Positions 39,612 to 41,986 of a stretch of 64,000 nt of DNA are shown in pieces. The number at the start of each line of letters is the position of its first letter. The stretch's first letter is position 1. Source of the DNA: an uncultured Kiloniellales bacterium. GTDB taxonomy: Bacteria; Pseudomonadota; Alphaproteobacteria; Kiloniellales; JAKSDN01. The position numbers and the translations under genes were made by a program. The stretch covers positions 1,447 to 65,446 of the forward strand of contig CAMYKD010000004.1 of the NCBI GenBank assembly GCA_947258885.1. The letters run 5' to 3'. The notes under the pieces were generated by a model, which saw nothing but the letters and a program-made list of their open reading frames with translations, had not been told where the DNA came from and made no database searches.

Positions 39612-40436
39612 TCAGGCGGCGCAGTAGGGCTCGGACTCCCTGTAGGAGACCGTCTCGAGGTCGCGGATGCTTGCCTGCGGGCCGCACAGCGGACAGGCCG
39701 GGTCCGACTTGAGCTTGACCGTGTGAAAGCTCGTGCCCAGGGAATCGTAGAGCAGCAAGCGGCCGGCCAGGCTCTCGCCGATGCCGAGCAGTTCCTTGAT
39801 CACCTCGGTCGCCTGCAGCGCACCCAGCGTGCCGGCCAGGGCGCCGAGGACGCCGACGTCGGCGCAGCTCTGCTTCGGATCCCCCGGCTGCGCGCCAAAG
39901 ATGCAGCGGTAGCAGGGCTGCGCGCCGCCTTCATAGGCCTTGTAGGTCGAGAGCTGCCCGTCAAAGCGCATGATCGCGGCCGCGACCAGCGTCTTGCGCG
40001 CGAGGTGGCAGGCGTCGTTTACCAGGTAGCGGGTCGGGAAATTGTCCGAGCCATCGGCCACCAGATCGTATTGGCCGATCAGCTCCAGGGCGTTGCCGGG
40101 CACGAGGCGCTCCTTGTGCGCCACCACCCGGACCTCTGGGTTGATCTCGGCCAAGCGCGCCGTGGCGCTATCCACCTTGTCGAGGCCGACGTTGGAGGTG
40201 TCGTGGACGATCTGGCGCTGCAAGTTGGACAGGTCGACCTGATCGTCGTCGACCACGCCGAGGGTGCCGACCCCGGCGGCGGCCAGATAGAGCAGGAGCG
40301 GCGAGCCCAGGCCGCCCGCGCCGACCACCAGGACCCGCGAAGCCAGGAGGCGCGCCTGGCCCTCTTCGCCCACCTCGGGAAGCACCAAGTGGCGCGCATA
40401 ACGCTCGATCTGCGGATCGGTCAGTTCAAGGTCCAT
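39612..40436 (-). CDS. moeB: MoeB/ThiF-family adenylyltransferase (no rhodanese domain)
   Basis: 'RYARHL.LPEVG..GQ', 'GAGGLGSP', 'SNLQRQ', 'DGSDNF', CxxC pairs 'CYRC' and 'CPLC'. Confidence 0.9.
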   Translation of the reverse strand: MDLELTDPQIERYARHLVLPEVGEEGQARLLASRVLVVGAGGLGSPLLLYLAAAGVGTLGVVDDDQVDLSNLQRQIVHDTSNVGLDKVDSATARLAEINPEVRVVAHKERLVPGNALELIGQYDLVADGSDNFPTRYLVNDACHLARKTLVAAAIMRFDGQLSTYKAYEGGAQPCYRCIFGAQPGDPKQSCADVGVLGALAGTLGALQATEVIKELLGIGESLAGRLLLYDSLGTSFHTVKLKSDPACPLCGPQASIRDLETVSYRESEPYCAA

Positions 40437-40449
40437 GGCTTTCGGGTCC

Positions 40450-41418
40450 CTAATCGCCCTCGAAAAGGTCGGTCGAAAGATAGCGCTCGGCGAAGGACGG
40501 TAGCACGGCCACGATCGTTTTGCCCGCCTTCTCGGGCCGGGCCCCGACCTCGAGCGCCGCGGCGAGAGCTGCCCCCGAGGAGATGCCGACCGTCAAGCCT
40601 TCGAGGCTCGCGGCCTCACGCGCGACCGCGATCGCGGTGTCGTTGGCGATGCGCAGCACCTCGTCGATCAGGCCGGTGTCCAGCACCTCGGGCACGAAGC
40701 CGGCGCCGATGCCTTGGATCTTGTGCGGTCCCGGCTCACCGCCGGACAGGACCGGACTGTCCTCTGGCTCGACGGCGACGATCTCGACCCCCGCCTTGCG
40801 CCCCTTGAGCACCCGGCCGACGCCGGTCAGGGTGCCGCCGGTGCCGACGCCGGAAATCACCACGTCGACCTGCCCGGCGCTGTCCTTCCAGATCTCCTCG
40901 GCGGTGGTTGCGCTGTGTACCGCCGGGTTGGCCGGGTTGGCGAACTGCTGGGGCATCACGGCGTCGGACAGCTCCTGAACCAGGGCCTCCGCCTTGGCGA
41001 TCGCGCCGCGCATGCCCTCGGCGCCCGGGGTGAGCACGAGGTCGACGCCCAGGATCTGCAGCATCTTGCGCCGCTCCACGGACATCGTGTCGGGCATGGT
41101 GAGGGTCAGGCGATAGCCTTTCGCCGCGCAGACGAAGGCGAGCGCGATGCCGGTGTTGCCGCTGGTCGGCTCGACGATCGTGGTGTCGGGCCCGATCCGG
41201 CCCTCGGCTTCGAGCGCCTCGATCATGGCGAGGCCGATACGGTCCTTCACCGAGCCGAGCGGATTGAAGAACTCGCACTTGCCCAGGATCTCCGCCTTGC
41301 TGGCATGGCGCTGCATCAGCTTGTTCAGGCGCACCAGGGGCGTTGCACCGATCGTGCCCAAAACGTCGTCGTAGACACGGCCGCGAAACTCGCCAGTCGT
41401 CGACACGGTGCTGTCCAT
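40450..41418 (-). CDS. cysK: Cysteine synthase A (O-acetylserine sulfhydrylase)
   Basis: PLP Lys in 'NPLGSVKDR', 'EPTSGNTG', 'QQFANPAN', 'GVGTGGT', 'PHKIQGIG', 'ERYLST'. Confidence 0.96.
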
Positions 41419-41530
41419 CGAAGTGCCTCCCTTGGATCCAGTCAAACAAGACGATCAACGCGATCCCAACAAGGGTCGGCTGCCGGCCGGGTGAGGGATC
41501 AACCGGCGCCGCCGCGCGCCGCCCCGGCCG

Positions 41531-41986
41531 TCAGATGCTGAAGTCGGGCACCCCCGCGAGCTTTCGGGGCACCTTCTGCTCGCGCGCCCTCTCGCAGAGG
41601 TCCTCTATGGTGAGGGAATCGAGGCGCGCCATCATCTCGCGCTGCATCTCGATCCAGATCGGCCGCACGACCTTGATGCCGATCTCCGAGCCGTCGGGTT
41701 CGCCGGCCGGATCGCTCGCGCCCTCCACGTTGCGCACGACGCGTATGATTTCGCCGACCGTGATGCGCCGGCGTTCCCGGGCCAGGCGGTAGCCGCCGCG
41801 CGGGCCACGTTGCCCGGACAAGATGCCCCGGTGCACGAGCTGTTGGAGCACCTGTTCGAGGTAGCGCCGCGGGATGCCCTGGCGGCGCGAGATCTCGGTG
41901 GAGCGCACCGGCGAGGGCCCGGCGTTGTAAGCGATGTCGACCACCGCCTCGATGGCGAACAGAAGCTTTCTCGACAGCCTCAGCAT
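41531..41986 (-). CDS. Rrf2-family regulator, CymR-like, without the IscR Cys triad
   Basis: 'YLEQVLQQL...G.RGPRGGYRLAR...ITVGEIIR'; only one Cys; C-terminal DFSI. Confidence 0.9.
   Translation of the reverse strand: MLRLSRKLLFAIEAVVDIAYNAGPSPVRSTEISRRQGIPRRYLEQVLQQLVHRGILSGQRGPRGGYRLARERRRITVGEIIRVVRNVEGASDPAGEPDGSEIGIKVVRPIWIEMQREMMARLDSLTIEDLCERAREQKVPRKLAGVPDFSI

Follow-up and report, generated by a model that had tools for sequence, protein, structure and literature searches.

A C-terminal peptide ending in Ile anchors two kinds of described partner in the active site of O-acetylserine sulfhydrylase (CysK). The accessible text on Bacillus subtilis presents CysK as the corepressor of the Rrf2-family regulator CymR, with a model in which the CymR C-terminus sits 'like an anchor' in CysK (PMC11487621), and that on Staphylococcus aureus reports that a CymR decapeptide ending in YMFYI binds the CysK active site with a dissociation constant (KD) of 25 nM, with crystal structures (bioRxiv 10.1101/2024.09.19.614015). 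In Mycobacterium tuberculosis, the native terminal tetrapeptide of serine acetyltransferase (CysE) is DFSI and was co-crystallised with CysK1 in 2Q3C, according to the available part of PMC9547175. Here, an Rrf2 regulator that ends in the same four residues is described from an uncultured Kiloniellales bacterium of the Alphaproteobacteria. Its gene, rrf2, lies directly upstream of cysK on the minus strand of a stretch of DNA of 64,000 nucleotides (the window; GenBank assembly GCA_947258885.1, contig CAMYKD010000004.1, positions 1,447 to 65,446), and positions given below are those of the window unless a genome handle precedes them. How Alphaproteobacteria control their cysteine synthesis is, to our knowledge and as far as the literature searched shows, largely uncharted, and the CysB paradigm of enterobacteria is generally lacking in them. 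An earlier, model-generated reading of the sequence (the original prediction) proposed that this bacterium uses an Rrf2-CysK complex as its cysteine sensor in place of a CysB-type LysR regulator, and invoked both the CysK1-bound DFSI peptide of M. tuberculosis and the CysK-docking Ile peptide of CymR, which the sources above bear out.

The analysis suggests that the regulator is a cluster-less Rrf2 factor with a docking tail of the CysE type, and that it probably forms a complex with CysK that reports O-acetylserine (OAS) and cysteine status. This interpretation appears well supported in silico by the anatomy of the protein, the conservation of its tail, the co-variation of tail and enzyme, and the predicted docking. 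In agreement with the original prediction, to which no such system was known in Rhodospirillales-like bacteria, no description for Alphaproteobacteria was found in the literature searched, outside which most subscription journals lay; by title and abstract, the Rrf2-CysK papers concern Firmicutes, Actinobacteria, or unrelated matters. The one proteobacterial match for CysK and Rrf2 (PMC4646962) was unrelated, as judged from its accessible part.

Anatomy and family membership of the regulator

The rrf2 gene (41531-41986, minus strand) is an ATG open reading frame (ORF) of 151 codons plus stop, and its product belongs to the Rrf2 superfamily by both the Pfam Rrf2 profile (PF02082, 104.5 bits against a cut-off of 30, 6e-30) and TIGR00738 (100.4 bits, cut-off 73.3). 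The protein ends in KLAGVPDFSI. The codons of D148-F149-S150-I151, the proposed CysK active-site plug, lie at 41534-41545 on the minus strand and read gac ttc agc atc, followed by a tga stop at 41531-41533. Its single Cys, C131, lies in the motif EDLCERA, and no Cys is present in residues 86-110, the loop in which IscR carries its cluster ligands, which we take to be three Cys and one His ahead of the dimerisation helix; the ligand loop of the regulator contains neither Cys nor His. The original prediction had read the gene in the same place, with one Cys, no three-Cys motif and a terminal VPDFSI, and was accurate on each of these points.

An AlphaFold2 model built from an alignment of 91 sequences (mean predicted local distance difference test (pLDDT) 89.3, predicted template modelling score (pTM) 0.83) exhibits the Rrf2 layout. 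Helices are predicted at residues 6-21, 29-36, 41-52, 77-88, 101-124, and 127-136, with the winged helix-turn-helix (wHTH) composed of helices 29-36 and 41-52 together with strands 56-59 and 65-68, and with the long helix 101-124 corresponding to the dimerisation helix. The linker and tail, residues 137-151 (codons at 41534-41578, minus strand), form a coil without secondary structure in the model, where the pLDDT of the block is 57-61 and falls below 50 at residues 146-148, and the linker varies in relatives. Across the 91 aligned sequences, the wHTH residues R41, L43, E44, R60, G61, G64, and Y66 are invariant, as is I151, and D148 is conserved in at least 90%. The invariance of the wHTH residues suggests that DNA binding is under selection.

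Curated models separate the regulator from IscR, with scores of 78 bits on TIGR02010 (cut-off 207.55) and 69.3 bits on NF008110 (cut-off 275), and likewise from CymR, for which no protein over the NF047409 cut-off was found in 61 alphaproteobacterial genomes. On these sequence models, the regulator is an Rrf2 protein that is neither CymR nor IscR and appears to represent a separate lineage working like CymR, its non-orthology to the CymR of Firmicutes being read from profile scores alone. The genome of the bacterium possesses three further Rrf2 genes: a three-Cys IscR-like gene directly after cysE, a SUF-regulator-like gene, and one more.

Conservation of the tail and its association with CysK

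When all six frames of the genome of the bacterium are read, 10,533 ORFs reach 100 amino acids, and the regulator alone among them has a D-[F/Y]-x-I end. All 120 of the closest homologues (76-92% identical) end in DF[STN]I, and all 80 loci from named genomes (64-79% identical), which include Kiloniellaceae, Pelagibius, Rhodovibrio, Azospirillum, Skermanella, Stellaceae, and others, end in D[FY]xI, preceded by a variable linker. The best matches of a profile made from members of 40-50% identity end in [DSN][FY]xI (120/120), and the tail is present in 76 of 77 complete metagenome copies. The best representatives of clusters at 50% identity end in [DE][FYW]xI in 71 of 150 cases, and many of the remainder align with the query over its N-terminal part only and may be fragments. 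In a pool of 300 tails, for which the tail pattern itself served as the selection criterion, 288 have D at position -4, and position -3 is F in 276 and Y in 23; positions -4, -3, and -1 are fixed and positions -10 to -5 are free to vary. One family member (P0363) is labelled by its source as a metagenome-assembled genome of 'Candidatus Cybelea', presumably a non-alphaproteobacterial lineage, and transfer or binning error could explain this placement.

The association with cysK was followed in the named loci and in an even sample of genomes of the class. Of the named loci, 79/80 have cysK immediately downstream in the same orientation. A match to the regulator at E <= 1e-15 is present in 154 of the 301 sampled class genomes, and 142 loci of this sample were inspected, of which 133 were intact and interpretable, five were broken or truncated, two had no room on the contig, and two were weak paralogues. 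The tail is present in 127 of the 133 loci and an adjacent cysK in 120. Both occur together in 118 loci, the tail occurs without an adjacent cysK in nine, neither occurs in four, and an adjacent cysK occurs without the tail in two, which belong to two genomes of one genus. One of the 118 loci (L096, from G240) comes from a genome flagged as unpublished, and no claim made here depends on it. The original prediction would have been undermined by loss of the terminal Ile from syntenic homologues; the residue is kept in 80 of 80 named loci and in 118 of the 120 class-sample loci with an adjacent cysK.

Presence of the tail coincides with presence of a true CysK, with the exception of one genus. 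All eight genomes in which a tail-bearing regulator lacks an adjacent cysK (G180, G253, G087, G186, G069, G178, G281, and G244) have CysK elsewhere, with scores of 417-441 bits, and a CysK over the TIGR01139 cut-off is absent from all four genomes whose orthologue has neither the tail nor a neighbouring cysK (G139, G300, G074, and G143). The best CysK-profile matches in the latter are 260 bits in G300 and 268 bits in G074, with no match in G139 and none at E <= 1e-40 in G143. Both characters differ even within one family, in which G244 possesses the tail and a CysK of 441 bits and G074 has neither. The compared genomes are related, and these counts are descriptive and do not constitute a statistical test.

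At one tail-less locus (L152, G300:C4:2917500-2924000), cysK is gone from between rrf2 and moeB, the rrf2 frame ends in DHSDLAS, and the moeB start follows immediately. This arrangement is suggestive of a clean deletion in which cysK and the tail were lost together. Another locus, L120, was considered as a tail-less case with an adjacent cysK and was rejected as a frameshift, SDFVI-stop being present in the +1 frame.

Some genomes carry an additional tail-bearing copy away from cysK. The second copy in G016 (L136, G016:C1:2014500-2021000) is preceded by genes for an assimilatory sulfite reductase (497.8 bits, cut-off 457), a siroheme synthase domain, ferredoxin, and peroxiredoxin. The further copy in G069 (L141, G069:C37:334300-340900) adjoins a TauC/SsuC-like ATP-binding cassette (ABC) permease.

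Predicted docking into CysK, proposed mechanism and alternative explanations

The cysK gene (40450-41418, minus strand) encodes an O-acetylserine sulfhydrylase A of 322 amino acids that scores 431.8 bits on TIGR01139 (cut-off 350.95) and possesses the TSGNT loop and the active-site Gln. Its ATG at 41418 is preceded by GGAGG, and a TTG at 41445 is an alternative start. Residues T85-S86-G87-N88-T89, Q158, G192-T193, and Q235-G236 do not vary across 74 sequences, and the nearest solved structures are 2q3b/2q3c/2q3d (5.1e-119), which include the M. tuberculosis CysK1 complex. CysK, with an alignment of 74 rows, was folded together with residues 118-151 of the regulator, with an alignment of 91 rows. 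The interaction prediction score from aligned errors (ipSAE) was 0.62 (runs of 0.58, 0.62, and 0.62), compared to 0.19 for the best of three controls, the control with chain 1 swapped for an unrelated natural protein being at 0.19. Of 157 solved complexes, 116 reach the mark applied, as do 2 of 215 mismatched pairs, a calibration that is only rough here, own alignments having been used. At least 50% of contacts are common to the runs, and the partner pLDDT is at least 44.

Confident contacts join P147-I151 of the regulator to CysK residues 85-89 (the TSGNT loop), 109, 135-137, Q158, 192-193, 229-231, and 235-240, and the contacts of residues 147-151 with the active-site loops are those with the least expected error. 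The tail is therefore placed by the model in the CysK active site, as the original prediction anticipated and as in the functional definition of CymR, although this agreement is in silico only. The predicted contacts with the TSGNT loop and Q158 correspond to the Thr and Gln contacts described for CysE peptides in the available part of PMC9547175.

The locus thus resembles the known systems in several respects and differs from each. The regulator shares with CymR of B. subtilis and S. aureus the Rrf2 winged-helix fold, the lack of an Fe-S cluster, as read from its sequence, and a flexible, Ile-ended C-terminus that carries an aromatic residue at position -3 (YMFYI in S. aureus, PDFSI here). 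The position of the tail in the CysK active site is also shared, being known from crystals for S. aureus, according to the accessible text, and from models for B. subtilis and for the present pair, and by analogy CysK would be a partner or corepressor. Unlike CymR, the regulator has a tail of the CysE type, D-[F/Y]-x-I rather than Y-M-F-Y-I, and is encoded directly upstream of cysK in a coaBC-dut-rrf2-cysK-moeB run. The terminal DFSI is identical to that of M. tuberculosis CysE in the CysK1 complex (2Q3C), as far as the available text describes it, but is borne here by a DNA-binding protein and not by a serine acetyltransferase. IscR has the same fold and differs in its three Cys and one His ligands, which the regulator lacks. 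The CdiA-CT toxin of Escherichia coli is also said to be an unrelated protein with an Ile-ended tail that mimics CysE and docks into CysK; that tail, however, reportedly belongs to a toxin domain whose nuclease CysK activates, and does not report metabolite status.

The CysE of this bacterium (TIGR01172, 233 bits) ends in SRPGKC and lacks the C-terminal Ile of the cysteine synthase complex. CysE was also sampled from 28 genomes of the class, grouped by hand from the table of regulator matches; of the 29 sequences, an Ile end is present in only 1 of 18 from genomes with the regulator family and in 3 of 11 from genomes without it. The absence of a terminal Ile from CysE here and in most sampled relatives suggests that the regulator may be the main or only CysK plug. 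The sole Ile-ended CysE of the 18 (L164, G004:C27:29308-32793) ends in SPDFQI, which is of the same D-F-x-I type as the regulator tail.

It is proposed that the tail, with its Phe and the carboxylate of its terminal Ile, would enter the pyridoxal 5'-phosphate (PLP) active site of the CysK encoded by the neighbouring gene, giving a regulator-enzyme complex. By analogy with CymR, OAS, the substrate of CysK, would compete for the same site and dissociate the complex, and since OAS and the tail would share a site, complex formation would report OAS and cysteine status. DNA binding by the regulator would in turn change on complex formation, in the manner of the Bacillus and Staphylococcus CymR2-CysK2 repressor, with the complex, and not the free regulator, as the putative DNA-binding form. 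The targets would be sulfur and cysteine genes, possibly including the coaBC-dut-rrf2-cysK-moeB run itself. On analogy and gene order only, sulfur status might also be tied to coenzyme A (CoA) synthesis through coaBC and to MoeB. The suggestion that such a complex stands in for a CysB-type LysR regulator gains support from the retained tail, its co-variation with CysK, and its predicted docking, and the CysB equivalog was not found in the genome, which is 97% complete (best score 73.7 bits against a cut-off of 436).

Several observations weigh against this interpretation. The label 'CymR-like' in the original prediction holds for the working resemblance and fails for family membership, the regulator scoring 62.1 bits on the CymR equivalog model NF047409 against a cut-off of 195; the IscR-like paralogue of the same genome scores higher on this model (101 versus 61 bits). 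In the docking runs, the partner pLDDT is low, at 44-46, and the favourable score may reflect memory of the solved peptide-CysK complexes (2Q3C and the S. aureus CymR peptides). Given that solved look-alikes exist, the fold shows likeness to known complexes and not binding by this copy, and because catalysis by itself accounts for the conservation of the contacted CysK residues, that conservation is uninformative on binding. The association of tail and enzyme is broken in one genus, where the regulators of L309 (G225) and L316 (G052) end in FEQVAQ and VAEQH despite an adjacent cysK, with no hidden frame. One of the four tail-less genomes without an adjacent cysK, G143, is only 81% complete, and the counts overstate the number of independent events because the compared genomes share kinship.

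Operator searches also identified no common palindrome beyond the shuffled background. Exact 5-bp inverted repeats with spacers of 0-15 bp were sought and compared with shuffles. In 72 rrf2-cysK spacers, no palindrome occurs in more than three sequences (shuffles also three); in 52 rrf2-upstream regions, a palindrome is common to at most three (shuffles at most two); and in 97 coaBC-upstream regions, no palindrome is shared beyond shuffles, the only repeats being GC-rich ones and TCACA-N10-TGTGA in six sequences. With no operator or regulon found, the designation as a cysteine regulator draws on analogy, gene order, and the two anecdotal contexts in G016 and G069.

An alternative that is considered unlikely is that the tail does bind CysK but that its main job is enzymatic, the regulator serving as a stoichiometric inhibitor or buffer that replaces the CysE tail, with DNA binding constitutive or otherwise controlled. 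According to the accessible sources, the CysE-derived peptide that inhibits CysK1 of M. tuberculosis consists of the same four residues, and CymR and CysE peptides inhibit SaCysK (bioRxiv 10.1101/2024.09.19.614015). The lack of the tail from the CysE of this bacterium and from 17 of the 18 sampled CysE of genomes with the family would also fit such a role, as would the rrf2-cysK spacers, whose median of 67 bp suggests that the two genes are usually co-transcribed, which would yield comparable amounts of protein. A transcription factor is, however, normally far scarcer than a biosynthetic enzyme, and the invariance of the wHTH residues across the 91 sequences points to selection on DNA binding. 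In the only characterised Rrf2-CysK pair, moreover, CysK is a corepressor, as stated in the accessible text of PMC11487621. The enzymatic and transcriptional roles are also compatible with one another.

It is improbable that the protein is instead an IscR/NsrR-type or thiol redox sensor, possibly acting through Cys131, and that the tail and the cysK neighbourhood are incidental. The best-scoring characterised relatives, by family and by structure, are IscR-like (TIGR02010, 78 bits; PDB 4cic, 4e-20; E. coli IscR, 1e-18), and 'iron-sulfur cluster assembly transcription factor' is the label that some databases give to homologues. CymR of S. aureus, in addition, senses oxidation through a single Cys. 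The IscR scores nevertheless lie far under the cut-offs, the ligand loop is without Cys or His, and the genome possesses a separate three-Cys IscR-like protein beside cysE as well as a SUF-regulator-like protein. Cys131 is not among the columns conserved in at least 90% of sequences, and several family members are Cys-free. Identity as IscR and a Cys-based sensor were therefore rejected on the scores, the missing ligands, and the poorly conserved Cys131, and a redox role would also leave the conservation of the tail and its joint loss with CysK unexplained. Even less credence is given to a tail that is read by a partner other than CysK, such as a C-terminal-specific protease, a PDZ-type domain, or a CysM/cystathionine beta-synthase (CBS)-like PLP enzyme. 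Hydrophobic C-termini are common recognition signals, and the genome encodes two CysK-like paralogues under the cut-off (297 and 269 bits). The tail-less genomes, however, retain CysM-like paralogues (260-268 bits), the tail tracks bona fide CysK, and the fold puts it in the CysK active site, the unrelated-protein control remaining at 0.19.

A regulator-CysK complex that reports OAS and cysteine status would constitute a concrete, testable candidate for a cysteine regulator that is present in about half of the sampled class genomes. Current annotation is of little help in recognising it, the labels encountered for homologues being either the generic 'Rrf2 family' or a name drawn from iron-sulfur cluster assembly. 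If this holds, a phylum distant from that of CymR evolved or retained the same design, in which a regulator plugs the enzyme, using a different tail, and the regulator would be another case of a protein borrowing the CysE tail to dock into CysK. The CysE ends suggest that formation of the CysE-CysK complex is not universal, the tail peptides widen the natural diversity of CysK-binding peptides, and a D-[F/Y]-x-I-COOH end together with cysK synteny provides a simple annotation rule. A broader scenario is put forward only tentatively and may well prove wrong: in a large part of the Alphaproteobacteria, the CysE-CysK complex would have been replaced, CysE being without a docking tail and an Rrf2 lineage other than CymR having independently gained a D-F-x-I plug, such that the regulator-CysK pair is the master OAS and cysteine sensor of the class and, by way of its own operon, couples sulfur status to CoA synthesis (coaBC) and to the activation of sulfur carriers (moeB), with tail and CysK co-evolving and being lost together.

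Gene order, promoter-like elements and sulfur context

The ORF list and profile matches give six genes head to tail on the minus strand, in the order coaBC-dut-rrf2-cysK-moeB-PlsB-like. The first gene of the conserved run, coaBC (42479-43720), encodes phosphopantothenoylcysteine synthetase/decarboxylase (TIGR00521, 403.9 bits) and has a GTG start. The ATG of dut (41994-42482; dUTPase, NF001862, 196.2 bits) overlaps the coaBC stop, and dut ends 7 bp ahead of the rrf2 ATG. A spacer of 112 bp (41419-41530, unstranded) separates rrf2 from cysK and may hold an internal promoter. The moeB gene (39612-40436) starts 13 bp past cysK and encodes a ThiF/MoeB-family adenylyltransferase (Pfam ThiF, 258.5 bits; MoeB subfamily NF004281, 299.7 bits, cut-off 266), in agreement with the order of rrf2, cysK, and MoeB/ThiF adenylyltransferase given in the original prediction. 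A PlsB-like glycerol-3-phosphate acyltransferase of 479 amino acids, well under the PlsB cut-offs, follows 21 bp after moeB (38151-39590). Among the 80 named loci, coaBC lies upstream of rrf2 in 71, moeB lies downstream of cysK in 65, and the full coaBC-dut-rrf2-cysK-moeB order is present in 46. At L309 and L316, moeB is missing.

Consensus promoter and terminator scans returned nothing useful, and no Rfam match was found at E up to 0.1 in positions 38000-46500. A promoter-like element missed by the consensus scan, CTTGCC-N17-TTAGGT-TATCTAC (43732-43767, minus strand), lies 11 nt ahead of the coaBC GTG start. The layout CTTGyC, 17-18 nt, yTAnnT, and TATCTAC is found in 6 of 15 coaBC-upstream regions of relatives among those listed, and TATCTAC itself in 7 of the 15, mostly Kiloniellaceae- and Pelagibius-like. 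The distance of 11 nt, without a Shine-Dalgarno sequence, suggests that the mRNA is leaderless or has a very short leader. In footprinting, 80 metagenome loci revealed no operator, only promoter-like GGTTGATT-N17-TAAAC elements, and elements of this kind are present in the rrf2-cysK spacer of some relatives with 77-83% protein identity. A repeat in the spacer of three Azospirillum loci, TCTAC-N7-GTAGA, is no more frequent than expected by chance and was discarded.

DsrA (575 bits) and DsrB (516 bits) are encoded side by side in the genome of the bacterium, outside the window (G000:C36:18210-20599). No assimilatory sulfite reductase was found in this genome with the Pfam NIR_SIR and PAPS_reduct profiles, which returned only a weak CysH-like match (81 bits versus 154). 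The presence of DsrAB, with no assimilatory sulfite reductase found, suggests that the organism probably handles reduced sulfur, perhaps as a sulfur oxidiser in which CysK is supplied directly with reduced sulfur. Assimilatory sulfate-reduction genes were dropped as regulon candidates in this genome, in which only the weak CysH-like match and DsrAB were present.

Also outside the window, cysE is followed by the three-Cys IscR-like Rrf2 gene (G000:C147:11837-13034). As cysE adjoins this gene, OAS synthesis appears to be linked to an Fe-S regulator and CysK to the tail-bearing one. The same order of cysE and an Rrf2 gene is observed, by coordinates, in G039, G001, and several other genomes of the class.

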